Origin: a virus
Length of the DNA stretch: 64,000 nt
Virus record (IMG/VR): IMGVR_UViG_3300045988_160359
Coordinates: 53,570-117,569 of that record
Direction: 5' to 3' (one strand)
The translations under genes were made by a program, and so were the position numbers. Positions 19,601 to 48,522 of this stretch are shown here, piece by piece. The notes beneath the pieces are model-generated. The model was not told the DNA's origin and did no database searches. It saw only the letters and a program-made list of their open reading frames with translations. How positions within the stretch are numbered: position 1 is the stretch's first letter; each line of letters begins with the position of its first letter.

Positions 19601-22600
19601 GATGAAAATGGTGAAAAGGAAGTTACATTTAGTGAGACTAATCCTTATAAACCTAATACTTTTTATATTGAAAATACTGCTTATGTAAAACGAGGAGAAG
19701 AAAAAACTCGTCAAAAATATTGGTATTTTAATAATTATACTTGTGGAACCCATAAATTTACTATGAAGATTGACTACATGGAATCTTCTGGAACTTATAA
19801 TATGGGATTCGCAAATATGGTTAAAAATGCTTATTCTAAACATCCATTAGATGATTATAATAATGCAAAAGCATTTTAGGTTTTAGACCCTGACAAAACT
19901 GTTGAGACTGAAACAACTGAGTATGTTCCTGGAACTACTTATACTTATTATAATCATAAAGGCAATCCGAAAACAGCAAGTAATGAAGTTTTAGAAGATA
20001 ATATTGTGATTACCAGCAAAGAAGATTTTGATTTAGGCCCATACGCATTATATCAAAAATTAATGGCTGAAAATCCAACTGTTTATTCAAAATTAAAAGT
20101 AGCTGATTCAAGTAATCCTAAATATAATAAATGGTATATTATGAAACCTGGATACAGTGATTTTAAAGTTGAAAATACTGATGATTATCGCACTTCTGTA
20201 CGAGGGTTCCGTGTACTTGCATTCCATAAAAAGAAACCAGTCGATGGTAGCACAGAGCCTATTTATCAATTTATTGGTATATATAATATGCTTTTAGATA
20301 AAGGTTCTGATGAAGTATATGGATTCGCACTTGACAGTACTACTGGCAAAGATCCAAAAGCTAAATTTATAGGCGATGGTACTAAGAGTATGCCTAAAGT
20401 AGCAGAATGCTGGGAGTTTGAAAACAATAGCCGTACCTTCTGCTCATATCGTGACCCACAAGACCGCAAAGATTTGAAATTTGATGTATTTAATGCTGAT
20501 GGTTCTCGTGTATTAAATGCAGTTCAATCTGCCCCTGTGGTAGCAGACTCATTTGAATATCGTTATCATAATGACGAAGATATTCTTGATTATATTATGG
20601 CTCCTGATGGAGAATGTAAGAAAGACCCAACATTAACATTCTCTAAGGATGATATTACATTAAATCAAGAAAATCGCGCTCAGCATTTATTGAAAGATTA
20701 TTCTAATTGGGAACGTGCTGTAGCTTGGGTTTGGAGTACTTGCACTGAAAAAGTTGTATCAAATGGTACTTATAAAATCTGTGATGTTGGTGAAGAGTTA
20801 TTTGATAGTAATAAACATTATATTATGACAACTAATCCATTAACTTCTGAATAGATTTATACCTTAGCTGAAGAATATATAGAAGGCACTACTTATTATA
20901 AAAAGAATCCTGACTATAATCCTAATCAAGAAAATAGTTATGAATATATTGTTGCTTATGTTGGAACAGTATTATTTAGTGCTATTAAAACTAAATTATA
21001 TACTGGTGAAATTGATAAAAATAATAATATTACTTATGTTCCTTGCTATAGTACTGATACATTTAACCCCGATAAACGTTATTATACTTTGGAATCTTAT
21101 AGCGATGAAGAGTTAGATACAAAGGCTGATAGATTAGTTGTTTTATGTAAAGATGAAACATTTGATGCAAGTAAAACATATTATAATTATGATGGAAATG
21201 CTAAATGCGGTAAAGCAGTGACTAAAGCTACTGTAACTGCTGAAACTTATGAGCCAAATAAATATTATATTGGAACCATTATTACTTATGGTGACCGCTC
21301 TTATAAATATGATACACAAGAGTATCGTGGTGATAAATTTACTTATGAATTAAGTGACCATTTCGATAAAGAATATATGGCTACATATTTTGTTATGACA
21401 GAAATTTTTGAATGTTATGACTCTCGTGGTAAAAACTGCATGATGGCTTCTTGGGGTCCTCAAAAGAAAGGCGGAGACTATATTTGGTATCCAATTTTCT
21501 ATGATATTGATACTCAATTAGGTATTAATAATACTGGTATCCCTTCATTTGAATATAATGTTGATGCTACTGAAGATGGTAACTATTCTACTTCTGATAG
21601 TGTTTTATGGAATAATTTCTATAAATATTTTAAAACTGGCTTAATTATCCCTAAATATAGACATTTACGTGGTATTACTACTGATGTATTTGATTCTAAT
21701 TTAAAACAACCACCTTTAAAAACTGTTGATCGTATTGAGTCATATTATTTAACTGATTATAATATAACAAATAACTTAGCTGACTTGGGCACACGTCCAT
21801 TAGTAGCAGTTAACTTAGATGAATATTATAAATATATTACTATTACGAATGATGCTTCTTACTTAGATGGTACTACTGGACATATTAGTAGTGATACAAC
21901 TGGTGTATATACTGTTGATACTAATGGTACTTATTTCTATGCTTTACAAGGAAATAGAAGTCTATCTCGTCAACAGTTCCTATCTAACCGTTTAGAGTAT
22001 ATTGACTCTTGGTTAAATGAAGGTAACTATCAACGTGGTGGTGCAAACCGCATTCGTGGTCGTGTTGCTGCGAACAATAAAAATAAAACTTCAGATAAGT
22101 GGATTGAAACTGCTAGTGATCCTTATTTTAAGGATGAAAGTACTTTAACTAAAAATCATTTATTTGATGCTGAATATTGGATGACATTAACTCCAGCCCA
22201 CTCTTCTTATGTTACTCTTGGTGATGATAATGAAGCCTATCCTTCTCGTAAATACGATGGTGTTCATGCACTAAGATTTAATATTGATTCTATTGAAAAT
22301 GGTGTCCGTAAGAGTGAAAATTATCCTGAACAATTGCTATATGTTTATGGTATTAACCAAATGAAAGACCTTGGCGATATGAGTAATCTATATTGGCAAG
22401 AGTTTGAAATTTCTGGTGATGCTACTAAATTAACTAGTTTGAAATTAGGATATGATGGTTTGGATGAAAATGGAGAGCGTTGGCATAATGACAATGTTAA
22501 CCAATTCAGTATTCCTGCCAGCTCTTCTGATAGTAAAGGCATGCCCTTATTAAAAGAAGTAAATATGAGTAATATTCAATTTAATGCTGCTTCTCCTATA

Positions 22601-24838
22601 TTAGATTTAACCAGTTGTGAAAAATTAGAGAATTTCCGTGCTACTGGTTCTAATTTAATTAATGTCTAGTTTGCTAAAGGCGTCGCATTAAATACTGTAT
22701 ATTTACCTACTAGTATTACAAATCTTGAATTAGTTGAAGCTAATTTATTAAAGAATGTAATTACTGAAGATGAATATGAGAATCCTACCCGTGATGATGA
22801 AGGTAATTTACATGCTAATCCTGGTTTATATCTCCAAGGTTTCTTTGATAAAACCTCAACTGGAGATAAGGGCGATACAGTAATTGCTTCTCTAAATATT
22901 GCTGGTGGCGGCTTAGGCTATGATAGTTATAAACTATTAAAACAATATTATGCTATTCGCAGTCAATAGACTAATACTTCTCAAATTTCTATGACCGATG
23001 TTAATTGGTGTCCATATGTTTAGATGACTGTTGATGATGAACGTAATCCATCTACTACTTATTATGTGGATAATGGACATTATGGACTAGAACCTTATAC
23101 TTATACTAATTTTGATGCATGGACTATTAAAGTTGAAAATGGTGAAATTTATCGTAAGGATGAAACAATTCCAGAAGATAAAATAAATCAAATTACTGAT
23201 TTAGCTATGTTTAAAGAATTTATTAGTGATAAAAAATGGGTTAAAAATTCTAGTAAAAATATTCCTGATATCTCTGGTATTATTTATATTAATAATACAG
23301 AAGTTATTAAAGAATCTGAATTACGTAATATTATTCAAGTCGCTTATCCTAATTTAACAATTTTCTGTGCAAACGTTGAATAGGGATATACTGCTAGATT
23401 TGTAATTATGGATGAAGATGAAGGTAATGACGGTTGTTATCAGTTAATTGGCTCTATGACTTTAAAAGATGGTGAAACTTGGTTTGCTGATCCTATTGAT
23501 ACATTTGGTGATGTTAGTGAGAAAAAGCCGAATCATGATTTCTATGGTTGGGCATTGACAAATTCTGCTAGCGCTGATATCCTTATTAATATTGATAAAA
23601 GTATCAATAAATGGAATGAACAAACTCTTGATAATAATATTCATACTTATACATTCTATGCTATTTGTCCTATTCACAAATGGAGTGTTAAATATTATTA
23701 TAAAGATAGTACATTAATTGAAGAGAAAAAAATCCCTCATGGTAATTATGCTGTAATGTCTACTATTATTCCTTGGAAAGATGATAGTGATTTACCATTG
23801 GAATAGACCTATAAATTCTTAGGATATAATCGTTCTACTACTTCTAATACAGTTATGAAATTAGAAGAATATATGATTACTGAAGATACTACTTTCTATG
23901 CCGTATTTGATTCTAATCCTATAAGCGTTTATGATGATATCCATCCTGAATATTTTGAGCCTACTACTCAGGAATATAATTCACTATCTTCTCCATCTTC
24001 TTGGATATTTAGCGATCCAACAGAAGGTTTTAATAGTAAATGGTCTGTAATGAGTGATGGTATCGTTTTAGGTTTATGTAAAAAAGTTAAAGGTAAATTG
24101 ACAGTTCCTGCATTTTATGAATACAATGGTAAAAAATTAAAAGTTATTGGTATTGATGCTTCATTTAGTTCTCCTGGTGATGTTACTAATAGTAACCAAG
24201 CAACGCCAAATGCTAAAACGATTGGTGGTAATACTATTGTAGCAACTTGTTATGGAGAAGATTTAACTCATGTGTTCTTCGAGAAGTATACTGATAATGA
24301 TGGTAATTAGAAATGTAATATTAGAAAATTTAATATCGCTACATTCTCTCATTCTTATGGTTTAAAATGGGTAGAATTCCCTGAAGGCTTACGAGTAATT
24401 GATGCTTACTGTTTTGCTTTAAATGGCGATCGTGATAAAAAATTAGTTGGTTCTTTAGAAAATGCTAATATTAGTGGAACAATTACTGAAATAGGTTAGA
24501 GCGGATTTAAAAATAGTTTTAGTCCTAAAGTTGAGGCATTAATTATTGGTCCTTCTGTGAGCTATATTGATGTTCAAGGTATTGATTTCTGGTCTAATTC
24601 AGACTTGAATAAAGGATTAACTGGTGGTATTAATAAAATTATTATTGGTACTCCAGAAGAAAAATCTAAATTATATACTTAGAAAAAGCTCGATTATGGT
24701 TCAACAGGAATTAGAGGATATAGAACCAATGCTGATCGTAAGATTAATAGTATTGATTGGTATACTACATTATCTCGTGATGATACTATTTCAGTCTTTG
24801 GTAGCGGTATTGATACCAGTACGGTAAATTATTTATAA
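16664..24838 (+). CDS. Giant tail fibre / receptor-binding protein (2724 aa); TAG-recoded
   Basis: RBS gaaaggagatacttgcATG precedes the start. The N-terminus PVRGTEAKLDLM...GYVYFAVDTGKIFID carries the tail-fibre motif. Nine ORF-track fragments (16664, 18077, 18962, 19547, 20006, 21089, 23024, 23408, 23855) are all in frame 2. Gaps 17603-18076, 18383-18961, 22670-23023 and 24311-24836 were verified open codon by codon, with only TAG present. The gene stops at TAA 24836-24838. It contains Gly-rich linkers (SGSGGGSGSNSG, VAGGGGGDD). Confidence 0.75.
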
Positions 24839-27825: not shown

Positions 27826-27901
27826 GTAAATATAAATAATATTTTGATGTAAATTTTTATAATAAATGTATATAATTTACAAAGAGGAAAGGAGTTATAA
27901 A

Positions 27902-29569
27902 ATGCTTAAAAAAGGCGATATAATTACTCTTGACTTAGGTGATGGATATGGTAATAGAAAATATCGTATTTTAAAAATAGATGGCCCTATAGCTGAAGTT
28001 TTAGGTTTATTTGATTTAAATTATGGACAAGTAATACCTTACACTAAAGATGTATCTCACACAATTACAATTGGTAATATTACTTTCCAAAATTATAATA
28101 ACAATGAAATTGATCAATTTATAAATAATGAATGGTATAATGATCATTTATCCAATAAAGCAAAATCAGCAATTTAGCCATAGTTATTTAATCAAGATGT
28201 TTGGTATTTTACTATTAACGGTTATTTACACAATGGTTCTCCTAAATATAATGGCGTTTATAGTAATGGTAGTTATCAAATTAGTAATGCTGGTATATTT
28301 TCTACTATTGGACCTAAATATATTCGCATCCCAGGAGTCCAAGATATTTTAGATTATTTTGCAGATAAAGATTTAAGAGTCGATCCTGAGGGTATATTTT
28401 CTAGTAAAAATATTTGGAAAATGTTTTGGGATCAAGATAAGGGCAACTCTGAAATGATGTGGCTGTCTTCTAGTTCTGCCAATGATTCTACAAAAGTTGG
28501 ATTTATTGATGGTTCTACTGGATTAGTAAGTATGCAAGGAACTGCTACTTATATAGGTACAGTTCATCCAATATTTACTATTGATTTAACTCAATTTTTA
28601 CCTTTAGAATTTAAACAGTATATTTCTCCTTATACAAATACAGTTATTTTACAAGATGATGCATTAAATTTATTAATGCGTATGACAAAATGTTATCCTA
28701 TTGCGGGAGATGGTACTGGTATTACTTTGGTTCCTACTCCAGATGATTAGCATATTCAAATATAGAATGCTATAAAAATTTATTCAGTCTTAAGTGATGG
28801 AACGGCTGAAGAAAAAGAAAAGCATCCAGGATGTATTTGCATTTGGGATACTTCAGCTAGCAAAAATAATAAACAATATATTTAGGCTGGTTCATTATTA
28901 GATTTTTATACAAGTGAATTATCATCTGGCCTTAAAGGAAAAGACATAAAAGCTAATCAATATGGCTCTTTTATTCTTATTAAAAATAAAGATTATAAAA
29001 ATCCTATTGTAGTTCCTATTAAAGGATTTGACAGCCAAGGAAATTTAATTTTACCAGGAAAAAAAATTCAATCTGCTATAATTGAATCTACTGGAGCTAT
29101 TACGGCCACTGGTAATATTACTTCAAGTGCTATTATCACAGGGAAAAAAGTGCGTGGTGCAGTATTTAATGATTATGCTGAGTATAGAGAATCTTATATT
29201 AAAGAGCCTGGCCGTTGTGTAATTGAAACTGGTTATGGAGATTTAGAATTGTCAACTAAACGTTTACAATTGGGCGGCAATATTATTTCAGATACATTTG
29301 GTTTCTCTATTGGCGAAACAGATAAAGCACAAACTCCTATTGCTGTTTGTGGTAGAGTATTAGCTTATCCTGATGAAAATAAAGAATTATATAAGCCAGG
29401 AGCGGCTGTGTGCAGTGGTCCAAATGGAACTGTGTCATTAATGACTCGTGAAGAAATTAAAGAATGGCCTGATGCAATAATTGGGTATGTAAGTGAAATT
29501 CCTTATTATGATACTTGGGGAACTGATAATATTAAAATAAATAATAGAATTTGGATTAAAATAAAATAA
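27902..29569 (+). CDS. Tail fibre-like protein (555 aa) with a conserved C-terminal module shared with the 33640-40170 fibre
   Basis: RBS aggaaaggag is followed by ATG 27902. The frame-2 fragments 27866, 28421 and 29150 fuse via TAG. The C-terminal 135 aa (NDYAEYRE...DTFGFSIGETDKAQTPIAVCGRVLAYP...CSGPNGTVS...RIWIKIK) is about 55% identical to 39760-40170. The gene stops at TAA 29567-29569. Confidence 0.7.
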
Positions 29570-29612
29570 AAAAAAATAGCAGATAACTGAAATGTTATCT
29601 GCTATTTTTTAT
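29570..29612. terminator. Bidirectional rho-independent terminator (A9, then atagcagataac-tgaaat-gttatctgctat, then T6)
   Basis: A perfect 12-bp stem is flanked by an A-run and a T-run. It lies at the convergence of the + gene ending at 29569 and the - gene ending at 29705. Confidence 0.85.
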
Positions 29613-29704
29613 AATTCAGTTGATATATTTTTAAAATAACTAATTTGATTATTTATATCATATACCCCTGAAACAATAATTCTTTTTAATGTAAAATTAT
29701 CATT

Positions 29705-30919
29705 TAAATTAGTATAGTCATTAGGAATAAGTGCCTCAAAATTTACATAATAATAATCAATATCTTTATCATATATATGTTGTCCTACATTAATTATTGA
29801 CCAAATTGTATCTTTAAATTTTATTTTATTAAATTTTATATTATCAAAATAATTTATTGCAATTAAATATAATAAATTTGCTGGTGTTTCACGGTGATTA
29901 ATAGTAAAAGTAGAAGTATTTACATCTCCAAAATACTAATAATTACCTGTCCAAACTTGAGGCATTGTATCCATATTAACATAAATTACTTTATTATTAT
30001 CATATTCCCATTTTGTTACTACAGTATTATGAGTATTTTCAAAATATATGGCAAAAGGTATTGTTATTGGTAGTGTTATTTTATTAAAATTTAAAAGAAA
30101 AGCATAATATAATGTTGTATTATTTTTTGCTGTCTCAAATTCTGTTGCATTTTGGATAGTATGATTGTCATCTGTAAAATAAAGAGAATAATATCCTTTA
30201 CTAAGCCAAATATAAAAAATTGAATTTATTTCTAAAGCATTTACTTCTTCTGTTGAAAGTTTAACTAATTCAGACCCAGAGCGTTTATATATTCTATCCT
30301 CATAATTTTCTTTATAATAAGTTAATTCTTCTACAGTTTTACAATTTATATCAATGAAATCAGTATCTGCTTTAGTAAAATAATAAACATTTTCATTATA
30401 ACTTTGTTTAGGGTCTACGGGATAAAAATTCGTTTCTTGACTGGTAATATAAACAATATTATCATAATTAGAATTATTAAAATACTGTTGAACTTCTTCC
30501 AAAGCTAAATAACGATATTTACCTAAATTTTCATTCTGTAAATTAAACAAAGCTGTTTTTAAATTTAAATTTAATTCTGCAATTTCTTGAGCAGTAGGTA
30601 ATGGTAATGAATCTTTTAGATTATTTTCAATTGATTCAATTTTATTGGCATTTATACCTGTTGTGGTAATAAGAGTGCCAATATCACTTTTATTAGAGTT
30701 TATTCTGTCATTTAATTTTTCTTGCTAAGTTGATAAATTATCAATAGTATTTTTAAGAGTTTCTAATGATTCAACAGTTTGCTATAAATTTGCTATTTTA
30801 TTCTATAAGTCAATAATATCCTAAGCATTGATATCATCAAAATTTAAATTATTAATTTTATTTAAAATTTCTTGCCACAAAGCTTTAATGCTTTCATCGG
30901 TCCAATAATAATTATTCAT
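29705..30919 (-). CDS. Coiled-coil protein (404 aa) on the opposite strand inside the structural block; TAG-recoded
   Basis: Reverse-strand RBS ggagg is followed by ATG (cat at 30917-30919). ORF 29936..30550 ends in TAG, not a true stop. Reading continues through 5 TAG codons in total to TAA (tta at 29705-29707). Confidence 0.6.
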
Positions 30920-31000: not shown

Positions 31001-31029
31001 TTGACATTTATAATTTTTTATGGTATACT
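31001..31029 (+). promoter_or_regulatory. Sigma70-like promoter (TTGACA, 17 bp, TATACT) for the radical-SAM cassette
   Basis: The -35 TTGACA is at 31001-31006, a 17-bp spacer follows, and the -10 TATACT is at 31024-31029. The RBS aaaggaga and ATG 31056 lie downstream. Confidence 0.55.
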
Positions 31030-31055
31030 TAAATTATATGAAAGGAGATTTGCGA

Positions 31056-31832
31056 ATGGCAGCAACTGATTTTTCTTCTTTATTTGCTGGAGAAAAAATA
31101 AAAAAAGCAGATTTAATTTAGTTAAAACAAGAAATACGTGAAATGATATTAAAACGTATGTATAATATTAATATTTCACAATATGGTTCTAGTTTATATG
31201 ATTATACTGATTCTTAGAAAGATTTAACACTTCAAGATGAAGAGATTATTAATGATTATTTTAATAAGATTTTAGAGCCTATGCAAGCCATTAATCCTAC
31301 TAAATTAGGATTTAACGAAAAATATGATGCCACCTCTAAAAAAACAACTCTTTTCAAATAGGATGAAGCTATTCCAAATTTAAAAGAATTAATTTCATTT
31401 TTTTAGATTTGCCAAGCTGAAAAAAATCAAAATAAATTAGATATTAGTAAGAGTAATTGTTTAAATCAATGTACTGGCATGTGCGTTAACTTATGTGCTA
31501 CTGGATGTACTGCACGTTGTGCTAGTAGTTGTTCTGGAGACTGTGAAGGTCGAACTTGCCAAAGTGGTTGTGATGCAGGTTCAGGAGGCTCCACTCCAAA
31601 CCCTGATCCTACACCACCCCCTAGTGGAGGAGGCGGCGGTGGGTGTCCTTGTACTGGAAATTGCACGGGAAGCTGTAATATTGCTTGCACAACTACTTGT
31701 CACGGTGGATGCCGTGGAGGATGCTCTGGGTATGCTTGCAGAAATGATTGTAATAACACATGCTCTGGCAACTGTGGTCGTAGCACTTGTACGGATATAT
31801 GTAATGGTGGTACATAGGGCTCTATGCATTAA
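31056..31832 (+). CDS. Cys/Gly-rich protein (258 aa): N-terminal ~150-aa domain plus a C-terminal ~110 aa with ~32 Cys in C-x3-C/CxxC repeats; candidate radical-SAM substrate/precursor
   Basis: Frame 0 was verified open from ATG 31056 through 4 TAG codons into the GC-rich segment 31466-31830 (CTGMCVNLCATGCTARCASSCSGDCEGRTCQSGCDAG...GGGGGGCPCTGNCTGSCNIACTTTCHGGCRGGCSGYACRNDCNNTCSGNCGRSTCTDICNGG). The gene stops at TAA 31830-31832. Confidence 0.7.
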
Positions 31833-31865
31833 TATAAAAAAGAGTAAAAGGAGATTTTATTATAA

Positions 31866-32144
31866 ATGATTAAAAAAGTTCAAATTCCTCAAGAAATTAT
31901 TTTAGAGGTTCAACGATTATGGTTTGAATATCAATCTAATTTAAATATTTTAGGTTATTTAATGACTTAGAATGATATTAATAAAGAATTATTAGCAGAA
32001 TATAATTAGGATACTAAAATTCGATTTACTGAATGTGAAATGTATAAACAAAAAATAGCAGATTTATATAACCCCTTTGATTTTAATTGTCAATATATTT
32101 TTGATTTTGATAATAGTTTAATTCAATATAATAAAAATGATTAA
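31866..32144 (+). CDS. Small protein (92 aa) between the Cys-rich gene and the rSAM gene; possible PqqD-like recognition/chaperone partner (speculative)
   Basis: RBS aaaggag is followed by ATG 31866. The gene has 2 TAG and its TAA at 32142-32144 overlaps the rSAM ATG 32137 by 8 nt. Confidence 0.5.
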
Positions 32145-33495
32145 AAGAAATAAAATTCAAGAACATTCAGAAATAATTCATAATTTATATAAAGAGTTAT
32201 ATCCTAACGCTAATAATATTTTATGTCCTTCAATTACATTTCAAGTAACGGACGATTGTTGTTGTAACTGTAGCTATTGTTATCAAGGAAATAAAAATAA
32301 ACATTATATGACTCCTGAAACTGCTATACAAATTGTTGATTATTTATTTGATCTATATGAGAAAAATGATATTAATAATTTGATTAATAAAAATACAGCA
32401 GGTATTATATTAGAATTTATTGGTGGAGAACCATTGATGAATATTGATGCTATTGATGCGGCTTGTACTCATTTTTTAAATTATTGTTTAATTCATAATC
32501 ATCCTTGGCTACGAACTTTTAGAATTTCAATGATCTCTAATGGAAAATATTATTTTGATTCAAAAGTTCAAGATTTTTTAAAACGTTTTCATAATTTTAT
32601 TTCTTTTGGTATTACTTTAGATGGCCCAGAAGATATACACGACAAATGTCGTAAATATTTTGATGGAACAGGTAATTTTAAAGATGCTTTTGCAGCATTA
32701 AAATACCATAATCAGCATTATAATTAGATTAGAACCACCAAAGTCACTATTGCTCCAGAAAATTTATTAGAGATAAATAAATTAATTGATTTCTTTATAA
32801 ATGAAGCTGGCGCTACTGATATTTTTATGAATCCTGTATTTGAAGCAGAGTGGACTAATGAAGAAGCTTCTATTTATTATTAGGAATTAAAAAAAATAGC
32901 AGATAAAATGTTAAATGTTAATCAATCAAATGAATTAATTAATAATATAGTATTTGCTGATAATATTGGATACCCATTAGAGGATACTGATACTTTAAAT
33001 TGGTGCGGTGGTACTGGCGCAATGATGAGTTTTGATTATAAAGGGAAAATTTACCCTTGTATTCGATATATGGAATCATCATTGGGGAAAGAAAGAGAGC
33101 CTATTATAATTGGTTCTATTAATACAAATGATAATAATGAAAAATATTTAAAGAATTTAGAAAATTTAAAAAAAATTACTCGACAATCTCAATCTACAGA
33201 AGAATGCTTAACTTGTCCAATTGCTGCTGGATGCGCTTGGTGTTCTGGGTGGAATTATTAGTTATACGGCACACCCAATAAACGCTGTACTTATATTTGC
33301 CCAATGCATAAAGCTCGTGTCTTAGCAAATGTTTATTATTGGAACAAGCTTTATAAGATTAAAAATCAAGATAAAGTATTTGAGTTAAATCTTCCAAAAG
33401 AAGAGTGTTTAAAATTTATTAATGAAAATGAATATAATATGTTGTTAGAATTAATTCAAAAATAGAAGGACAAAATAAATCAAATAGATAATTAA
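32137..33495 (+). CDS. Radical SAM / SPASM-domain enzyme, anSME (anaerobic sulfatase-maturating enzyme) family peptide-modifying maturase
   Basis: It has the CxxxCxxC motif (DDCCCNCSYCY), GGEPL, SNG, the LDGPEDIHDKCRK motif (compare anSME LSMDGPKEIHNLNRK), and a C-terminal SPASM cysteine array (CGGTGAMMSFDYKGKIYPC ... ECLTCPIAAGCAWCSGW ... CTYICPMH). ORFs 32137..32727 and 32908..33261 are joined through TAG in frame 1 (lines checked). The gene stops at TAA 33493-33495. Confidence 0.8.
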
Positions 33496-33558: not shown

Positions 33559-33608
33559 TTATGGGAAAGTCTTACTATAGGCTTTCCCATTTTATTTTTT
33601 TTATTTTT
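33559..33608 (+). terminator. Rho-independent terminator (atgggaaag-12 nt loop-ctttcccat followed by T-rich tract)
   Basis: A 9-bp perfect stem at 33561-33569 and 33582-33590 is followed by tttattttttttatttt. Confidence 0.8.
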
Positions 33609-33639: not shown

Positions 33640-36600
33640 ATGGCTTTATTTAAAATTAATAAAGGTTTAGCAACAAACTTAGCAAAGAATATGCCTTATG
33701 CCAAAGAAGGCTTTGCATATTTTACTAAAGATGATGGTAAATTTTACATTGATATTGATGGTGATGGTACTACTACTAAAGCTGAAATTAATGTCAATCG
33801 TATACCATTAAATGCTGCTAAAGCTGATATAGCTACAATGATTCAAGCTACAGCAATGGCAACTGATGATAGTAAAGTATATCCTATTTTAGCATTTAAT
33901 ATAACTGATTCTACTAAGAATTTAGTTGAAGCTAAATATAGTCAAATTGGTATTAAAAATGGCACTCTTGTTATTCCAAGCGTTGAAGATAAAGATGAAA
34001 TCCTTATTTCTAATGAGGGTCTTGGTCGTGGTATTGTTATTGATAATAAAGGTACTAACAATGCTATTGAAATTCTTAATGGTAAAGGTATTAAAGTTGC
34101 ACAAGATCCAACTGAAAATTTAGAATTAACTACTAAATAGTATGTTGATAATAAATTAGCTAATAAATCAAATACCGGACATAATCATGATGCAACCTAT
34201 AAAAAAATTCAAACAGCAGTACCTAGTCCTAAAGCATCTAATACAGATATTTCATTTATTGATACAGTATCATAGGATACTTAGGGTAAAATTACTGCTA
34301 CTAAAAAAACAGTAAGAGATGCTTCAGCTAGTCAATCTGGTGTTGTATCTACTGGGACTCAAACATTTGCCGGAGAAAAAACATTAAATAATAAAACTCA
34401 TTTTTCTAAAGGCTTTGATCTAAAAACTGATAGCGGAAATGCTTAGTTTAACGCTAATACTGTAAGTGTTAGCAGTGGTACTGATTATGTTGATTTATAT
34501 GCCTCTACTATTGGAGGTGGAAATGGCAATAAGGCTAGACCATTAGTATTAAATGCTAATGCAAATGGTTCTGGTAATGTAGGTATTGGAATTACTTAGC
34601 CAACAGAGAAATTAGAGGTAGATGGCAATGTTAAAGCTATTTAGTTTAAAGGTAATGCTGATACAGCTGATAAATGGAAAACGATTAGAAAACTAACAAT
34701 TGGTTCCACGGGAAAAGATGTTGATGGTAGTGCTGATGTTAACTGGTCATTAGATGAAATTGGTGCAGCTGCAAAAAAACATACCCATACTAAATCAGAT
34801 ATTACAGATTTTGCTCATGCTCATGATGACAGATATTATACTGAAAATGAGATAAATGATAAATTAAAAGCGATTAATGATAAAATTGGGGCGTTATTAG
34901 GAGCTAATGATGCCTTAGTATTTAAAGGTACTATTGACGGAAAAAATCCCTTACCTACTGCTAATTATGAAGTAGGTCATACATATAGAGTTAATGAAGC
35001 TGGTACATATGCAGGTTAGAAATGTGAACAAGGCGATTTAATTATTTGTATTGCTGATGCATTATCTACAAGCACGCCTCATTGGACTGTCGCACAAACA
35101 AATATCGATGGGGCAGTAATTGGACCTGTTAATGCTACTGGTGATAATATTGTTTTATTTAATGGAGCTACTGGTAAATCAATAAAAGACAGTGGTAAAA
35201 AATTAAGTGATTTTGCTCCAAGTAAACACGATCACATTATTACAGCAACTGCTAAAAATGATGGTGTTGTAGTATTAACAGGAACAAGTGGCACTAATGC
35301 CGTTACTTATGAGGCTACTCATGCAAAGAAGGGGCCAAACACTGCTGCTAATACAGTAAAAGGTCCTGCTGAAGATGTATCAATTAGTGGAGCGGGTAAA
35401 TCAGGTTCAATTGTAATTCCAAAAGTAACTGTAGATGCATATGGTCATACTACTGGATTAACTGAATAGACATTAACAATTACTCTTCCTAATGATACTC
35501 ATCATCAAAGTAGTACAGTTATTACAGATAATACAGCAGGGACAACAAATAAAGCCTCGGAAAATGGTAAGACTTATTTAAATCATATTGAAAACGGTGT
35601 AGTTCGTAGTACTCATAAAATAGTAGGGGCTGGTAGTACAAAAGTTTCAAGTGATGATGATGGAGTTCTTACGATTACATCTAAAGACACTGTTTATAGT
35701 CATCCTACCACTCCTGGTAATATACATTTACCAGCGGGAGGAAAAGTAGGCGATGTATTATTATGTGCTGGTGATAATACTGGAGCTGGTAAATGGGGTA
35801 TCGATCCTAATATTAAAACTGCCATTGATAATTTGGACGTTGATGAAACCGGTGGCGAGGGTAAATATATTCAGGCGATTAAACAAGTTGATGGTAAAAT
35901 CGTTGCTACAGCCGAAACAATTGATACTACCTTAAGTGCTTCAAGTACCAAACCAGTTTAGAATAAAACAGTAAATGATGCTCTAAGTAAAAAAGTTAAT
36001 ACTACTACATTTAATTCTCATACAGGTAATATGACTATGCATATTACGGATGATGAGCGTATTAAGTGGGATGCTGCATATACACATTCTCAATCAACAC
36101 ATGCTCCTGCAAATGCTGAAAAGAACCAAAATGCATTTAGTAATATTCAATTAAATTCTGATACAAAAAATATTATTAAAGCAGATAATGCCACTGATAC
36201 TATGATACTAAAAAGTGGCGATAATATTTAGATTACTGGTGATATTGAGACTGATACAATTATTATTAGTGCTACAGATACGAAATATAGTAATGCCTCT
36301 ACTGAGTCTTCTGGATTAATGTCTGCGCAAGATAAGAAAAAGTTAGATGGTATTGCATTAAATGCTAATAATTATTCGCATCCAACAACTGCTAAGCATG
36401 AGGCAGCAGCAGTTAAAGTAGGAAATGATGAACATGGTCATGTAGTTTTAGGTAGTGTTCTTACTAAGAGTGATGTAGGTTTAAGTAAGGTTGGTAATTT
36501 CTTAGCTGTTTCTACTGTAGCTGATCAAAATTTAACTGAGGATTAGAAGTCTAATGCTAGAGCGAATATTGGTGCTGGCACTAGTTCTCTTACTATTGGT

Positions 36601-39600
36601 AAAGGTGAAAATGATGCAGCGGCGGGTAATCATACTCATAATTATGCTGGCTCAGCTAGGGCCGGCGGTCCAGCAAATTCAACTAAGGGTACATTAACAT
36701 TAAAAGCTGGAAAGAATACATAGACATTTAATGGTAGTGAAGATAAAATATTTACAATTACTGCTAGCGATTTAGGATTATCTACAGCAATGCATTTTAT
36801 TGGTATTGCCACTAAAGGTCCAATTGCAGATAATTTTGATCCAGGTATTGCTAATTATGGTTTTACTAATGCTCAAACTGGTGATGTTATTATTTCTAAA
36901 GATGGAGATCAAGAATATGTTTTAATTATTAAAACAGATGCTAATAATAATCCAGTATACCATTGGGAATTACTTGGTCCAAATGGAAGTTATGCAATAT
37001 CTGACCATAAACATTCTAGCGCAGATATAAATTCAATGACCGGATATGCTAAAGGCACGGCAAAGGCACCTATTACAATTAATGATACTCTTAACACAGC
37101 AATTGGAAAATTAGAGTATAAAGTAGACAATAAAGTTGATTAGACCGCTGACAAGGGTTTATCAACTAATGATTTTACTAATGCTTATAAATAGAAGTTA
37201 GATGGTATCGAAACTGGAGCTCAAAAAAATCAAAATACATTTAGTAATATAACTATTGATAAGAAAACTATTAGTGCTGATAGTGCTACTGATACATTAA
37301 CATTAGTAGCAGGAAGTAATGTAACATTAACTCCTGATGTAGATAATGATAAAATTACTATTGCTGCAACAAATACTGATACTAAAGTTACTGCGGTAGA
37401 AAATCACTATACTCCAAAAGCAGATCCAAATGCAGCTTTATCTATTGATGCTTCTAGTACTACAGCTGCCATTTGGGACACAACAAATCTAGTTACTGGT
37501 GTTAATTTACAACGTGATGCTAAAGGCCATGTAACAGGTGTTACTGTTGATTCAATTAAAATGCCTGCTAATCCTAATACTAATACTCATTATACTAGTA
37601 AAAATATAATTGGAGATTCTGCTACTGCTACAGCAAATGCGACTGCGACTAATGGCAATGTTTATTTAAATCATTTAGAAGAGAGTGTAGTAAAAAGCGC
37701 GCATAAAATTAGTGGTGCTGGTGCAACAACAGTTACATCGGATGGTTATGGTAATATTACTATTACATCTAAAAATGACAATACTTGGCAAGCAAATACT
37801 AAAGATGCTAATGGTTATGTTACTGCACCTGGTGCTGTGGCTAATAAAGTATGGAAAACTGATGAAAAAGGTAATCCTGGTTGGCGTGATGATGCAGGCA
37901 CAAATTCGGTGACCGGACCTAATTCTTCTACTGTAAATGCTGTTCCCACATTTGCTGATGCAACAGGTAAAGTCATTAAAAATAATTCAGCAGTTACTAT
38001 TAATGATACTGGATTATTTACTGCTCCTTATATTGTTACAGGCACTGATAAAACTCATTATTTTCAAAGTAGAAAATTCCGTGGTGAAGGCAATGCTGAT
38101 ACATATTATCATGCTATTGATTTTGGATATAGTGGACATAATCAAGTTGATTTTCATGAATATGGTGGAATTTGGAATTTCTATGAAAATACTAAAGGAA
38201 CTGCGGCTGATGGAAAATTAGTTGCTTCCATTAAGCCTGATGGGTTTCATGGCAATTTAAACGGTAACGCAACCAGTGCCGATAAAGTTAATAATAATTT
38301 AGTTATTAAGCTAAACAGTGGAACTACTGAAGGAACAAACCAATTTACTTATAATGGTAGTGCTACTAAAAATATTAATATAACTCCAGCTAATATTGGA
38401 GCGGCTTCAAGTTCTCATAATCATGATTCTAGTTATGTTAAAAAATCTGGAGATACCATGACTGGCGATCTTAAATTCTAGAAAACTAATAGTGATGGTA
38501 CAACTTCAATAACTGCTACTATTGGAGCTATTACAGGATATATTACTGGTACGTGGCTTCAAACAACAAATGTTGGAAATAAAGCTGGAGATTTTGCTAC
38601 TATTGATAGCTCTGGTTGGATTTATAAACGAACAGCAGCACAAGCAAGACAAGATATGGGTCTTTCAACTGCTATGCATTTTATTGGCAAAGCGACAGTT
38701 GATATTACAGACGGCAGCACAGTTGATCCTAAAATCACTGGCTATACGACTAAAACTGCCGGTGATGTAATTATTGATAAAAATAATTCATATGAATACG
38801 TTTGGACATTAGAAGGAAAATGGGAACGTTTAGGTCCAGATGGCAGCTATAGCGTAGTCGGACACACTCATGATGATAGATATTTAAAATTAACTGGCGG
38901 AACATTATCTGGTGATTTATTAATTACTGATAAAATGTATGGATTTAAAATTGGTGCTTCTTCTTCTAATATTTGGCTTGGATTAGAACGAAGTAATATG
39001 GGAGAACCCCAATATGGATTATATGACCATTTAATGGGACAATGGATTTTAGAAAGTAATGGAACTCTTGCTAAATTCCACGGCTGGTCAGATGGAGCGT
39101 TTACTGCATCAAATGATTCTGATGGCAATCCAATTTCATCTACTTATGTTAAAAAAGCCGGTGACACAATGACCGGGGATTTAACTCTTAATAAAAAATT
39201 AATAGCAAATAATCTTATAGTTTTAAAAAATGGATAGACTTATGGAACCAGCGCTCCTACCAGTGGCACAGCTGGCCAATTATTCTTTGCCCAAGATACT
39301 AGTGATTCAGATTATTTGCCATTAACAGGTGGCACATTAAGTGGTAATCTAACTCTTAATGAAAAATTATTAATTACTAATAAAATGTATGGAACTACAA
39401 AGCCTAGCAATCCAGTAGAAGGACAAATTTTCTTCCAAGAGAATGATGGTTCTTTAACATTACCTGCTGGAGGAACAGCTGGATAGTATTTAGTTAAAAA
39501 TAGTTCTAATGATAGCGATGCTAGTTGGAAGAGTTTACCTGCATTAAATTATTTACCATTATCTGGTGGTACTTTAACAGGAAATCTTACTATTTCTCGT

Positions 39601-40170
39601 TCAGATACAAATGATGCTACTGTTCGTGTTACTAATTCAAAAGGATCTATCGGATTATTATCTTCTACCAATTGTGGTCTATATGATTATACTAAGAGTA
39701 AATGGTTAATTTATACAGATGGTACAAAAGCTTCAACTTCTTACGCGCTATATGGTGCAGTGTGGAATGACTATGCTGAATTCCGTGAAGGAGATACTAT
39801 TGATGCTGGTCGTTGTGTAGTTGAAGTTGGTGATGATACTCTTATTACTTCGACTGAACGTTTGATGCCGGGTGCGAATATTACATCTGATACATTTGGT
39901 TTTGCTATTGGTGAGACTGAACAAGCTAAAACTCCAATAGCAGTAAGCGGACGTGTTTTGGCTTATCCATATGAATCTCGTGAAGAGTTTAAAAAGAATG
40001 TTGGACGTCCAGTATGTTCCGGCCCTAATGGGACAGTTTCTATTATGACTGATGAAGAATATAGAAATAAAGGTTATTGTGCGATTGGCACGATTTCAGC
40101 AGTTCCTGATTATGAAGAATGGGGAACTGGAAAAGTTAAAGTTAATGGGCGCGTATGGATTAAAGTGTGA
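33640..40170 (+). CDS. Giant tail fibre (2176 aa) with HxH motifs and repeated GGTLTGNL/GDTMTGDL fibre repeats; conserved C-terminal module
   Basis: RBS gaagggag is followed by ATG 33640. The N-terminus LFKINKGLATNL...GFAYFTKDDGKFYID carries the tail-fibre motif. Frame 1 is line-aligned, and every line from 34081 to 36060 was checked to contain only TAG. ORFs 33640, 36031, 36319, 36790, 37561, 38656 and 39760 are all in the same frame. Motifs include YVKKSGDTMTGDLKF, LPLTGGTLSGNLTLN, HTHTKSDITDFAHAHDDRYY and TAGQLFF / TAG-(TAG)-YLV. The gene stops at TGA 40168-40170. Confidence 0.8.
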
Positions 40171-40191: not shown

Positions 40192-41913
40192 ATGGCAACT
40201 TATGATTTAGCAACAACATCTCCAAGTTTTACTTCTTTACGAGCCGGAGATATTATAAATTGTTCATATAGTGGAGCAAAAAAAAGTATTGATCTTCCAG
40301 CTGGTACTTATAAATTAGAAGTGTGGGGCGCTTAGGGAGGTAGTAGAAATACTAACAATCAAGGTGGTCCAGGAGGTTATTCAGTAGGTACTTTAACATT
40401 AACTACTAAAACAACGCTTTATATTTATAGTGGAGGGCAACCAACAGCAGTAAAAGTTGGAGGATTCAATGGCGGTGGAGCTGGTTATAACTCTGGATAT
40501 GGAGGAGGTGGAGCTTCTGATATCCGCATCGCTAAAGATAGTTTATATGCTAGAGTAATTGTTGCTGGCGGCGGAGGAGGAGCTTGTTATTCAGTTACTT
40601 TAAAAGGAGCTGGCGGAGGTACATAGGGCCTCGGAGGATATAATAATGAAACAACTATTGCTGGAAGTAATAGAAGTGGCGGTGGAGGCACTCAAACTCA
40701 AGGAGGCCATCCTTACTCTATAAGTGCTACTACTTATCCTGAAGCTGTTGGAACTTTTGGAAAAGGTGGAGCTGGTGGTGCAGGTAAAACTGGATATAGT
40801 TGTGGTGGAGGCGGCAGCGGCTGGTATGGCGGCGGCGGCGCTTATGATAATGATTCTGACTCTGACGGAAGAAGTGGAGGCGGAGGTAGTGGGTATATTT
40901 ATACCACTAGTACTGCTGCTAATTATCCATCTGGATGTTTATTAAATAGTAATTATTATTTAGCTAATGCTTCTACAAAAAATGGTACTGTTTCATTTGT
41001 AAAACCTGCGGGAGGAAATGAAACAGGGCATACTGGCAATGGATATGCTCGTATTACTATATTAACTACAACAGCGAAAACTACTTATACTTTCAATGCT
41101 AATGGAGGCGCTTCTACTCCCGCTTCAATTACTGTAAATTGGGGAACGACTAAAACACTACCTTCTGCTATTAATCGAGCAAGTAAGGGAGTTAATTTTA
41201 CTACTCTTTGTTACGGTGCAGGTGGTACAGATGTAACAGCTACTGGGCTAAAGACCGCTAATTATACATTTGCTGGATGGAATACTAATGCTCAAGGAAC
41301 TGGGACTAATTATAATGCAGGAGCATCTATCTCATCATCAGGATCAATTGATCCTGTTACTTTATATGCAAAATGGAATGTTAGTTATAGTTATAGTGCT
41401 AATAATCAAATTAAAACTATTCCCCATCCTACCCGAGCTAATTCTACTACTTCTTTTACTATTAAAGGAAATTGTAATGGTGGCATAAATAACACTTCAT
41501 TAACTGGCAATTAGACTATTTCTTATACTTTTACTGGATGGAATAGTTAGTATGATGGGAAGGGCACAGCTTATGATATAAATTCAACTGCTACATTTAA
41601 TGAAAGTACAATACTTTATGCCCAATGGAATTAGACAATATCTTATAATAATAATACTATTAATCTATTACCAATTCCTACTCGGTCTAAATATATTTTT
41701 ACAGGATGGAATACCGCAGCAAATGGTAGTGGAGGGACTTATCCTAAAGGCTCTACTGAATAGATTAAATCACCATAGACGTTATATGCTCAATGGTAGA
41801 GAGAAGCTTACAATTATGTCCCGTTTATTTATACAAATGGAAAATGGGTAAAAATGACTCCATTAATTTATAATAATGGAACTTGGACAAATAGACTAGT
41901 TGATTTAAAATAA
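40192..41913 (+). CDS. Glycine-rich-domain protein (573 aa) with C-terminal Listeria-Bacteroides (Flg_new-type) repeats; candidate cell-wall-binding tail protein
   Basis: RBS taaaggagag is followed by ATG 40192. Frame 1 was checked line by line from 40201 to 41911 (7 TAG). The N-terminal half has GGxGG tracts. Three C-terminal repeats of the form YTF(A/T)GWN(T/S)...G(T/S)(G/A)Y......TLYA(K/Q)W are present. The gene stops at TAA 41911-41913. Confidence 0.7.
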
Positions 41914-43401: not shown

Positions 43402-43552
43402 TCCCTTATTCCAATAGGCACAAAGAATGGCTCAAGGAAAATCAGAAGCAGAGATTATTCAAATTGCACGTAATATCTGCCGAGAAAAGGGAATCAATTT
43501 TGATGAAGCTTATTCTATCTTCCAATCTCAATATAATTAGAAAGGAATGTAA
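43346..43552 (+). CDS. Small protein (68 aa), overlaps the 3' end of the upstream gene in another frame
   Basis: RBS gaaaggag is followed by ATG 43346. It has 2 in-frame TAG and stops at TAA 43550-43552. Confidence 0.35.
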
Positions 43553-43557
43553 AAATT

Positions 43558-48027: not shown

Positions 48028-48522
48028 TCACATTTTTTCCCATAAGTCAAATGGAGCATAATAAACTTTTTGATTGCGTGAGCCGCGCATAGGTAAAGTA
48101 ATATCTCGTTGTTCAATTTTAAATGGGCCATCAATAATACAGTCAATATTATCAACAATATTTTTTAGATGTGGCTCTCTGCGCGTAGCCAATTCATCCA
48201 TTGTATATCCAGTCCATAAAAAAATTTTTGTTTTGGGAAGAGCTTCTTTAATATGTTCAATAATTAAATCTACAAGGAATAGATTTTCTGGGGCGAGAGG
48301 CTCTCCGCCCATAATACAAAAATCACGATGTATACCATTAGCAGTAAGAGCATTTACTATATCATCTAATGTATCTGTAGTAAATTCTTTTCCGCCATTA
48401 AAATCCCAAGTTTCTGGATTCTAACAACCTTCGCAATGTCTGGCGCATCCTTGAGTGAAAAATGAGACACACACTCCAGGAGCTCCAGCAATATCATTTT
48501 TAATTATTCCTGCGTATCTCAT
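48028..48522 (-). CDS. nrdG: Anaerobic ribonucleotide reductase activating protein NrdG (radical SAM), with one in-frame TAG
   Basis: Reverse-strand RBS aggag precedes ATG (cat 48520-48522). The N-terminus MRYAGIIKNDIAGAPGVCVSFFTQGCARHCEGC-(TAG)-NPETW matches the NrdG CxxxCxxC-x-N..TW motif. TAG at 48421-48423 joins the N-terminus in frame to ORF 48028..48312 (GGEPL, DGPF). Its ATG overlaps the nrdD TGA (ATGA). Confidence 0.8.

Follow-up and report, generated by a model that had tools for sequence, protein, structure and literature searches.

A Cys-repeat protein encoded with a radical SAM/SPASM enzyme in the tail module of a TAG-recoded phage is a candidate cross-linked virion component

A GC-rich patch at 31466-31832 of the window (the whole 64-kb stretch of DNA analyzed here) forms the C-terminal half of the first gene in a three-gene operon. 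The operon runs in the order promoter, Cys-repeat protein, 92-aa accessory protein, radical SAM/SPASM enzyme, and terminator, with the following features:

31001..31029, + strand: sigma-70-type promoter-like site (TTGACA-17 nt-TATACT with a TG extended -10; 11/12 consensus matches, the best of the region)
31041..31048, + strand: Shine-Dalgarno sequence AAAGGAGA, 7 nt 5' of ATG 31056
31056..31832, + strand: Cys-repeat protein gene (258 aa; TAG-sense ORF; stop TAA 31830-31832)
31056..31457, + strand: AT-rich, non-Cys N-terminal domain (aa 1-134), in-frame TAGs at 31119, 31215, 31359, and 31404
31458..31571, + strand: Cxxx repeat block 1, aa 135-172, 10 Cys, starting with the family-invariant C..xC(T/S)G(L/M)C
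31572..31643, + strand: Pro/Gly-rich linker DAGSGGSTPNPDPTPPPSGGGGGG, aa 173-196, confined to the window lineage and the recoded relatives L010-L015
31644..31814, + strand: Cxxx repeat block 2, aa 197-253, 14 Cys
31815..31829, + strand: in-frame TAG (31815-31817) and 4-codon C-terminal tail GSMH; relatives read on with sense codons (…NTGTKGSSK, then stop)
31866..32144, + strand: 92-aa accessory protein gene, two in-frame TAGs; its stop overlaps the start of the radical SAM gene (ATGATTAA)
32137..33495, + strand: radical SAM/SPASM enzyme gene (452 aa, four in-frame TAGs)
33561..33600, + strand: intrinsic-terminator-like hairpin (12-bp stem) and T-run, closing the operon

The promoter-like site is kept almost base for base in L010, even though substitutions at synonymous sites in the genes have almost reached saturation there. 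The Shine-Dalgarno sequence and the terminator-like hairpin are kept in L010 as well.

The Cys-repeat gene contains five in-frame TAGs (31119, 31215, 31359, 31404, and 31815) because the phage reads TAG as a sense codon. Translating TAG as sense raised long-ORF coverage from 47 kb to 71 kb, late genes were enriched for in-frame TAGs, and TAG paired with Gln in standard-code homologues (GWNYqLYGTP versus GWNYQLYGTP; YLMTqND versus YLMSQDD). The start at ATG 31056 was confirmed by relatives, which begin MSDFSSLFAGEK, and the gene matched the family HMM at E = 1e-24. Compared with a relative at ~65% identity, dN/dS was 0.21 to 0.23, selection was purifying in frame 0 only, and 23/28 Cys columns were conserved. 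L010-L015 have the same frame, the linker, and one TAG in common with the window gene, and homologues lacking any in-frame TAG occur in standard-code phages. A preliminary description of this DNA had listed four frames open across the patch (31466..31690-, 31479..31817+, 31495..31869+, and 31581..31829-); we reproduced these coordinates exactly, and the peptides that it quoted were correct. The extra frames are open because GC-rich sequence is poor in stops, and the alternative-frame and antisense ORFs were rejected, frame 0 alone being conserved. The joining of frame 0 to ATG 31056 also holds, but only with TAG as sense. Judged from the sequence, frame 0 is translated and constrained: the possibility that it might go untranslated is contradicted by a dN/dS of ~0.2 and by retention of the frame in relatives.

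The ~370-bp stretch of elevated GC content is real. In 367-nt windows, GC at 31466-31832 was 0.488 against a 64-kb mean of 0.301 (SD 0.048; z = 3.8), the joint maximum of the 64-kb window, and the 200-nt flanks ranged from 0.18 to 0.26. Gly-rich coding segments of other genes account for two further peaks of equal or near-equal height in the same 64 kb. Within the patch, GC2 was 0.77 and GC3 only 0.25 (genome, 0.16). The GC content predicted from the amino acids and window codon usage was 0.460 ± 0.011, and that observed was 0.484. The patch thus exists because codons for Cys, Gly, Ala, Pro, and Thr sit in an AT-rich genome. Searches of the patch for a DNA-level tandem repeat and for structured RNA found none. 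We rejected a foreign GC island or horizontal transfer, since GC2 drives the signal while GC3 and codon choice are phage-like. The sharp island of the preliminary description need not mean that the DNA has an unusual source, and a dN/dS of ~0.2 in frame 0 is at odds with a GC-rich insertion free of coding constraint. The same patch would not stand out in relatives with genome GC of 55-61%.

The N-terminal domain of the window protein is homologous, by alignment, to a conserved ~107-aa N-domain of the family. An AlphaFold model of the homologue P0112 gave three helices in the N-domain (pLDDT 70-88), and a Foldseek search of this fold against PDB found nothing. The P0112 repeats had a pLDDT of 30-40, which suggests disorder before modification. 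Block 1 carries the invariant family columns C135, C139, G141, and C143. Residues 128-160 weakly matched TIGR04118 (20.9 bits; cutoff, 35), the sole match of the window protein among TIGR04114/04117/04118, and residues 193-253, in block 2, weakly matched phrog_6085. The linker had a dN/dS of 0.25. Cysteine content, earlier put at ~30%, was overstated: Cys makes up 24/119 of residues 135-253 (20%) and ~26% within each repeat block. The description of the repeats as CxxxC/CxxC stands in its first half, with 18/23 spacings being C-x3-C; three are C-x4-C and one is C-x1-C, and C-x2-C is absent. Family-wide, C-x3-C accounts for 2081 of ~2500 Cys spacings. The residues between cysteines are Gly, Ser, Thr, and Asn, with almost no His, and no regular C-x3-D/E acceptor pattern was seen in the repeats.

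The best family of the enzyme was TIGR04115 ("radical SAM peptide maturase, CXXX-repeat target family"), matched at E = 8e-101 over profile positions 3-359 of 359. The score of 338.1 bits lies below the curated cutoff of 350 and leads all other models by >180 bits, the next NCBIfam matches being PapB (153 bits), QhpD (third, 80 bits), and then the SCIFF maturase. This near miss, together with the wide margin, places the enzyme in a sister branch rather than among core TIGR04115 members. Elsewhere, the phage homologue L004 scored 300.6 bits and the bacterial-type L005 scored 630.4. The radical SAM motif is present (C41-x3-C45-x2-C48), as are SPASM cysteines (C290..G-x4-C308; C357-x2-C360-x5-C366-x2-C369; C384 and C388), with 26.2 bits against the TIGR04085 SPASM model (cutoff, 27). 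Alignment to CteB (PDB 5WGG; E = 4e-14) begins only at CteB residue 94, past its RRE; the enzyme therefore has no fused RRE. By sequence, the enzyme is assigned to the thioether-forming SPASM clade, nearest to the CXXX-repeat-target maturases and then to PapB, QhpD, and CteB. L005 also has a protein of the second-maturase type TIGR04119 (235 bits), of which no homologue was found in any window frame at E <= 10. In cultured phages we found only distant jumbo-phage radical SAM proteins, at 22-24% identity.

The 92-aa protein belongs to a family with 45 database hits and was present in almost every phage-type locus fetched (not detected in L023). AlphaFold predicted a beta-alpha-alpha-beta-beta topology at a pLDDT of 94.8; structural comparison returned no specific relative, and the fold is not RRE-like. 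In L025, the 92-aa protein is fused in frame to the Cys-repeat protein, which points to an interaction with the substrate. The 92-aa protein probably aids recognition, standing in for the missing RRE of the enzyme.

An exhaustive HMMER search placed 528 clusters (at 50% identity) in the phage branch of this family, and the N-domain gave 131 word-index hits. Among 33-39 family members, the Cys columns showed little or no variation. The triad of Cys-repeat, 92-aa, and radical SAM genes occurred in essentially all of the phage-type loci fetched (23, plus the window region), spanning a GC content of 0.29 to 0.61. In relatives, the repeat region carries Pfam PF27846 (tSAM_targ_Cxxx_rpt; precomputed matches, some weak). 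TIGR04114/04117/04118 models match family targets, the target in L004 scoring 21.3 bits against TIGR04114 (cutoff, 20). Repeat regions ranged from ~70 to >230 aa, a length more in keeping with a stalk than with a peptide natural product. The bacterial-type target of L005 bears a TAT-like signal. Some relatives have optional extra genes, namely, X170 and one for a ~165-aa protein whose cysteines and histidines form a pattern visible by eye. The ~165-aa protein, encoded upstream in L002/L003, was considered as a leader peptidase and dropped, having no Pfam or PDB support and being absent from the window. By sequence comparison, the phage systems make up a large branch of their own, set apart by an added helical N-domain of ~110-135 aa, by a new 92-aa partner that takes the place of the TIGR04119 second maturase, and by a fixed location in the tail-fiber modules of phages of gut Clostridia. 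We found no cultured-phage carrier of the family, no published work on CXXX-repeat or TIGR0411x chemistry or biology, and nothing in the literature on a phage CXXX or radical SAM tail system or on ranthipeptides and phage.

In the window, the cassette lies between two paralogous giant fiber-like genes, for which Pfam and PHROGs gave no annotated match, and upstream of a holin gene. A 41-kb contig (L009) has it after tape-measure and tail-tip genes and before an endolysin; in the 43-kb temperate contig L025 it directly follows Baseplate_J, Mu gp48, and a PF12571-like fiber N-terminus; and in a 156-kb contig (L006) it adjoins a DUF285/LRR protein ahead of an amidase and a holin. Siphovirus-like, myovirus-like, and 150-200 kb phages all keep the cassette in this tail-module position. 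In the family member P0312, an insert between N-domain and repeats matches host-range/adsorption, tail-fiber, Tal, and PblB PHROGs (to 2.5e-14), and in P0240 the N-domain is joined to a tail-fiber-like repeat without Cys repeats. Such adsorption-type fusions are few (1-2/112 representatives), and the window protein itself gave no match to known tail or receptor-binding domains. The contrast that had been drawn with phage structural domains is doubtful, given a tail-fiber module in every relative examined and adsorption-type domains in some members.

The closest known counterpart is the CXXX-repeat system defined by models for targets (TIGR04114/04117/04118 and PF27846), a radical SAM enzyme (TIGR04115), and a second maturase (TIGR04119). 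The phage target shares its long C-x3-C runs with small residues between cysteines, and a radical SAM/SPASM enzyme with TIGR04115 as best family, aligned end to end, is encoded close by. In contrast, the phage enzymes score 300-338 bits (cutoff, 350) where the canonical bacterial-type L005 reaches 630, the phage cassette has a 92-aa partner and no TIGR04119 protein, its target carries a folded N-domain (~107-135 aa), not a TAT-like signal or a short leader, and the phage branch is located in tail modules. PapB/freyrasin and CteB/SCIFF likewise combine a SPASM radical SAM enzyme with Cys-rich substrates of C-x3 spacing; freyrasin has six Cys-Asp thioethers, and CteB has an N-terminal RRE (PMC8326336). 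Unlike these systems, the window system is phage-borne and late-expressed, with a substrate of 258 aa instead of ~45, no regular C-x3-D/E acceptors, and an enzyme that lacks the N-terminal RRE of CteB. The earlier suggestion of a SCIFF/ranthipeptide-like core is in essence right: the domain is a radical SAM target of that kind and not an ordinary folded domain, with a TIGR04115-type enzyme two genes downstream and PF27846 in relatives. It differs from ranthipeptides proper, which have a precursor of ~45 aa and an RRE fused to the maturase, in having 258 aa and an enzyme without a fused RRE. QhpD, a SPASM radical SAM enzyme, makes several Cys-to-carbon thioethers in a subunit that is kept within a larger assembly (PMC8326336). 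The likeness is that the cross-linked protein stays in an assembly and is not freed as a peptide; however, QhpC has three cross-links to Asp/Glu plus a quinone cofactor and no repeat array, Qhp has no phage context, and sequence similarity is low. The cnidarian minicollagens and NOWA, which show C-x3-C periodicity in structural, cross-linked extracellular material, resemble the phage repeats in this periodicity and in composition, whereas they are ~20-residue, disulfide-linked eukaryotic domains and the phage of an anaerobe has extended arrays, served by a radical SAM enzyme of their own. One family member is auto-named after NOWA in GenBank.

Taking the locus, the family, and the genomic context together, we consider it probable that the patch codes for the C-terminal half of a late protein, 258 aa long, that is cross-linked by the radical SAM enzyme and most probably stays whole, as a fiber or adhesin component in or on the tail-fiber/adsorption apparatus. 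The TAG-recoded phage, ~166 kb in size, probably infects gut Clostridia. Late in infection, TAG would be decoded (as Gln) and the Cys-repeat protein made. The enzyme would recognize two features, the N-domain with its helices and the invariant motif C..xC(T/S)G(L/M)C that opens the repeats, probably with help from the 92-aa protein, and SAM-derived radicals would join many of the 24 cysteines in the repeats to carbon atoms close by, in the backbone or in side chains. The two disordered C-x3-C blocks, with the Pro/Gly hinge, would become compact, redox-insensitive, protease-resistant cross-linked segments, and the finished protein would remain whole as part of, or attached to, the tail-fiber/adsorption apparatus. 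Thioether staples could replace disulfides, which would be unreliable in an anaerobic host and in the gut; the thioether chemistry is an extrapolation from the PapB, QhpD, and CteB enzymes, all of which score far below TIGR04115. That the protein is a thioether-stapled stalk built into the adsorption apparatus by the radical SAM enzyme and a chaperone-like partner, and the first RiPP-type radical-made virion element, is a more tentative proposal, to which we give somewhat less than an even chance.

The principal alternative, a serious one that we nevertheless regard as rather unlikely, is a RiPP-like product: the N-domain would be a leader that is cleaved, and the cross-linked core would be freed at lysis as a bacteriocin, signal, or superinfection inhibitor and not as a virion part. 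The enzyme does fall in RiPP-maturase families, the leader-like conserved N-part and hypervariable Cys-rich C-part follow the RiPP leader/core pattern, relatives have the optional extra genes X170 and the ~165-aa Cys/His protein, in the bacterial-type system of L005 the target is exported by way of a TAT-like signal, and Clostridia often carry SCIFF-type ranthipeptides, for which a link to quorum sensing has been described (PMC8326336). The autonomous, host-type promoter and terminator framing the cassette at the tail-fiber/lysis junction is moreover the textbook hallmark of a moron (accessory cargo), which, like the leader/core pattern, speaks against a virion part. However, no protease, transporter, or immunity gene was found in the 64-kb window, and no peptidase homology could be detected for the ~165-aa protein. 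A folded helical "leader" of 107-135 aa and a "core" of 70 to >230 aa would be far beyond known RiPPs. The fixed tail-module position across siphovirus-like, myovirus-like, and 150-200 kb phages, the fusions with adsorption-type and fiber-type modules, and a TAG recoding that ties expression to the late, structural gene set also argue against release.

Two further readings fit the data less well than release of a peptide. A metal- or iron-sulfur-binding protein (metallothionein-like or a cluster scaffold), with the radical SAM enzyme unrelated or using the protein as a cluster donor, would accord with 20-26% Cys at regular spacing, with the several Fe-S clusters needed by SPASM enzymes, and with the TAT-like signal on the bacterial-type target, such signals being typical of exported cofactor-bound proteins. 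We consider it improbable: the Cys-repeat, 92-aa, and radical SAM genes co-occur at nearly every phage-type locus in very divergent phages, a substrate-accessory fusion exists (L025), curated models label such repeats radical SAM targets, the residues between cysteines are Gly/Ser/Thr/Asn with almost no His, and the C-x3-C spacing is unlike the C-x-C or C-x2-C of metallothioneins. A non-functional feature, such as an assembly error, an inserted GC-rich stretch, or an ORF cut short by TAGs and yielding fragments only, is hardly credible. Under the standard code the gene does break at five TAGs, and the patch is open in four frames; this reading is nonetheless refuted by the evidence for TAG as sense across the window, purifying selection in frame 0 only, a frame shared by relatives, TAG-free homologues in standard-code phages, phage-like codon usage, and a family of 528 clusters.

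For annotation, the locus illustrates how a GC spike and TAG-broken ORFs, which look like artifacts, are resolved through recoding and amino acid composition. CXXX-repeat radical SAM systems are known as a bioinformatic family, to which the phage branch gives a concrete setting; this branch comprises hundreds of 50%-identity clusters, is encoded by three-gene cassettes, and invariably occupies the tail-fiber module, which makes it tractable. Were the product released instead, the phage would encode a RiPP of unusual size and make it only during lytic growth. Cassettes of this type are widespread in gut phages yet unstudied, and they may serve to make chemically stapled parts of the virion. If they do, post-translational radical cross-linking would be a principle of virion assembly new to phages, and it would join HK97-type isopeptide chainmail as a second way of reinforcing particles covalently. 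The segments would offer a protease- and reductant-resistant protein scaffold for engineering, and as a redox-proof substitute for disulfides they would explain fiber stability in phages of strict anaerobes.

The GC-rich island reported at 31466-31832, which encodes the C-terminal Cys region of a 258-residue Cys-repeat protein, was confirmed: its GC content of 0.488 is the joint maximum among equal-size windows across the 64 kb (mean 0.301, standard deviation 0.048), and its immediate flanks fall to 0.18 to 0.26. The four open frames listed in the preliminary description (31466-31690 and 31581-31829 on the minus strand, 31479-31817 and 31495-31869 on the plus strand) were recovered at identical coordinates, and its peptide strings are correct; the extra frames are an expected by-product of stop-poor sequence. 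Its estimate of ~30% cysteine was too high, the actual content being 24 of 119 residues (20%), or about 26% within each repeat block. As for the CxxxC/CxxC repeats that it described, C-x3-C spacing holds throughout except for three C-x4-C and one C-x1-C. No DNA-level tandem repeat and no Rfam match were found in the island.

We compared GC content and codon usage of the Cys region with those of other genes. GC1/GC2/GC3 were 0.44/0.77/0.25 in the Cys region versus 0.41/0.35/0.16 in the window's other genes. With the amino acid sequence fixed and synonymous codons drawn from the window's own usage, predicted GC was 0.460 ± 0.011 and observed GC 0.484, and the codons are those habitual to the phage (TGT, GGT/GGA, ACT). 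Codon choice is thus phage-typical and GC is set by the amino acids: the island is the outcome of protein sequence, not of DNA origin. In relatives with genomes of 55 to 61% GC, the Cys domain would be inconspicuous. The remaining GC peaks of the window are Gly-rich coding segments, at 40312-41002 (GC 0.488, in a 573-residue protein, phrog_1589) and at 43519-43983 (GC 0.45, in a 225-residue protein, phrog_16490, with the C terminus CCC…SGCGACGN).

The open reading frame starting at ATG 31056 contains in-frame TAG codons at 31119, 31215, 31359, 31404, and 31815. When TAG was treated as sense across the whole window, open reading frames of at least 100 residues spanned 71 kb instead of 47 kb, and the maximum frame length grew from 1324 to 2734 residues. 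In-frame TAGs number 148 (1.08 per 100 codons) in plus-strand late genes versus 24 (0.40) in minus-strand replication genes, and actual stops are TAA (26) and TGA (7) only. In both the radical SAM enzyme and the 92-residue protein encoded downstream, a TAG at a conserved position aligns with Gln of standard-code phage homologs (GWNYqLYGTP versus GWNYQLYGTP; YLMTqND versus YLMSQDD). TAG is therefore a sense codon, probably for Gln, across the whole window. No tRNA gene was found within these 64 kb, so the suppressor must be encoded outside them, on the rest of the ~166-kb genome. IMGVR_UViG_3300045988_147738 shows ~99% identity to the window. Three giant late frames (363-7469, 16664-24838, and 33640-40170; 2368, 2724, and 2176 residues with TAG as sense), with 17 to 45 in-frame TAGs each, presumably encode fibre or structural proteins.

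Six recoded relatives (L010 to L015, contigs of 78 to 196 kb) carry a 263-residue ortholog whose start (MSDFSSLFAGEK) and frame are those of the window gene, and which likewise has both Cys blocks and the Pro/Gly linker. They have in common with it the TAG at LIqLK and contain another within the repeats (CqSSC). Against L010, the N-domain has a Nei-Gojobori dN/dS of 0.23, the Cys region one of 0.21, and the adjoining genes 0.26 and 0.14; synonymous sites are near saturation, making these ratios rough, and pN is well under pS everywhere. Of the 28 Cys columns, 23 are kept. Sequence comparison thus indicates that the Cys-repeat frame is a real gene under constraint. It belongs to a three-gene set with the following elements:

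31001-31029, plus strand: near-consensus promoter with extended -10, 5' boundary of the set, conserved in L010
31866-32144, plus strand: 92-residue protein, beginning 34 bases 3' of the Cys-repeat gene, its stop overlapping the start of the 452-residue frame
32137-33495, plus strand: 452-residue radical SAM/SPASM enzyme, with CxxxCxxC at residues 41-48 and a complete SPASM cysteine set
33561-33600, plus strand: terminator with a 12-bp stem, 3' boundary of the set, conserved in L010

Promoter and terminator are retained in L010 despite synonymous-site saturation. A lone minus-strand gene of 436 residues (29609-30919) lies within the plus-strand late block, divergent from this promoter; it has a coiled-coil-like N terminus, five TAGs, and no family match, and is kept as a 422-residue gene in L010 to L015.

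The central idea of the preliminary description, a Cys-rich core modified by a radical SAM enzyme, is supported, and the partner of the core has been identified as a TIGR04115-like enzyme. TIGR04115 ("radical SAM peptide maturase, CXXX-repeat target family") is the top NCBIfam model (E = 8e-101), aligned over positions 3-359 of 359 at 338 bits, below the cutoff of 350. Lower matches are PapB (153 bits), QhpD (80), HxsB (72), the geopeptide maturase (71), and the SCIFF maturase (69). CteB (5WGG), which carries an RRE domain (PMC8326336), is the enzyme's sole PDB relative by sequence, and the alignment opens at CteB residue 94, past that domain. The Cys-rich protein itself weakly matches TIGR04118, and PF27846 ("tSAM_targ_Cxxx_rpt") is found on its homologs. 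Elsewhere on the minus strand, 48028-48522 and 48519-50768 resemble by eye NrdG and NrdD (anaerobic ribonucleotide reductase activase and catalytic subunit); if true, the window would encode two radical SAM enzymes, consistent with an anaerobic host.

The Cys-repeat protein belongs to a large family specific to phages. When its N-terminal non-Cys domain was used as a profile query, a word-index search returned 131 proteins; an exhaustive search recovered 528 clusters at 50% identity, and for 275 of these E was <= 1e-10. In 107 of the 112 representatives with a length of 150 residues or more, the N-domain is followed by six or more C-x3-C units, and this spacing accounts for 2081 of ~2500 Cys spacings family-wide; the residues between cysteines are chiefly Ser/Thr, Gly, and Ser/Gly/Thr/Asn. 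Conservation is strongest in the N-domain (…LKARVKAE.xRR…YDYTVTP…EH.NKI.VPMNAI…) and first repeats (C..xC[TS]G[LM]C), while in later repeats only the cysteines are kept, with array length and sequence otherwise free to vary. The triad occurs in essentially all fetched phage-type loci (GC 0.29 to 0.61); the 92-residue homolog was undetected in one, gene order is inverted in three, and three have two Cys-repeat paralogs. In one such arrangement (L006, 6900-7478 and 8001-8633; also L007 and L008), paralogs of 192 and 210 residues flank a 168-residue frame and accompany one 92-residue/radical SAM pair. Genes of ~170 and ~165 residues are optional among loci, and neither is in the window. The ~165-residue protein (L002, 3975-4466; L003, 3916-4401), encoded immediately 5' of the Cys-repeat gene, has a GCG…WHY Cys/His pattern and is a possible protease or amidase; neither Pfam nor the PDB gave a homolog. 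MAG-binned copies suggest hosts among Oscillospiraceae, Flavonifractor, and other Clostridia, and no cultured phage with the family was found.

In the AlphaFold model of one family protein (P0112), the N-domain comprises three helices (pLDDT 70 to 88) and the repeat region is unpredictable (pLDDT 30 to 40); Foldseek found no PDB relative of the N-domain model. A second protein (P0312) has an insert between the N-domain and ~230 residues of repeats that matches PHROGs for host-range/adsorption (2.5e-14), tail protein (8e-12), tail fibre, Tal, and PblB-type receptor binding; P0312 also weakly matches CBM_4_9. In a third (P0240), the N-domain is joined to a fibre-type repeat without a Cys array. 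In a 43-kb temperate myovirus-like contig (L025, 6001-7005), the Cys-repeat protein and, at its C terminus, the 92-residue protein form a single fused reading frame of 334 residues, a Rosetta-stone hint which suggests that the two interact.

The cassette of L025 follows genes for tape measure, LysM, YQBQ, sheath initiator, Baseplate_J, Mu gp48, and a 216-residue protein with a weak end-to-end match to the PF12571 tail-collar-fibre N terminus, and precedes a 110-residue gene and a GH25 lysin. In Mu/P2-type phages, this slot holds the genes for the tail fibre and for the factor that assembles it. A 41-kb siphovirus-like contig (L009) has the order tape measure, 759, 60, 421, and 146 residues, the cassette (Cys-repeat, 98 residues, radical SAM), 786 residues and, further on, an NlpC/P60 lysin; on a 156-kb contig (L006), the cassette lies between a DUF285/LRR protein and amidase and holin genes. 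In the window, it lies upstream of a holin between genes for 567 (27866-29569) and 2176 (33640-40170) residues. These flanking proteins, for which no Pfam or annotated PHROG match was found, end in a common C-terminal domain of ~140 residues (57% identity, E = 7e-55) and are probably paralogous fibre proteins sharing a tip or chaperone domain.

The target/enzyme pair belongs to an already catalogued kind (TIGR04114-04119, PF27846); our literature search turned up neither experimental work on this pair nor any account of the phage branch, which differs from catalogued CXXX systems in target architecture, accessory protein, genomic setting, and the missing second maturase. In a canonical bacterial-type system (MT837480.1, 2222-4919), a TAT-like signal sits directly on the repeats, unlike the phage type, the enzyme scores 630 bits against TIGR04115 versus 338 in the window, and a TIGR04119 second maturase is present (235 bits), whereas the window has none. 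That "phage" record shows no obvious phage genes near the system, so it may represent virome DNA of bacterial origin.

Because the closest characterized relatives of the window enzyme all make Cys-to-carbon thioethers, with PapB forming six Cys-Asp links in freyrasin, CteB one Cys-Thr link, and QhpD Cys-Asp/Glu links within a protein subunit (PMC8326336), the modification of the Cys-repeat protein would most likely be multiple thioether staples. The acceptor atoms are unpredictable, since the repeats lack regular Asp/Glu. The main alternative is a RiPP-like product that is released, in keeping with the moron-like framing by promoter and terminator, a distribution of conserved residues that resembles leader and core, and an enzyme that descends from RiPP maturation. 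We favor a whole cross-linked protein tied to the tail-fibre/adsorption apparatus, because modular position is fixed across three phage architectures, adsorption-type and fibre-type fusions occur, the folded N-domain far exceeds leader size, arrays span 70 to >230 residues, and expression is late and TAG-gated.

Radical SAM enzymes require anoxia. Thioethers differ from disulfides in that they form under the reducing conditions of the cytoplasm and persist in the reducing, protease-rich gut. Strictly anaerobic hosts would permit such chemistry and thioethers would suit the gut, which fits the tail-fibre role. There is a substantial chance that the phage branch will reveal a new principle in how virions are built.
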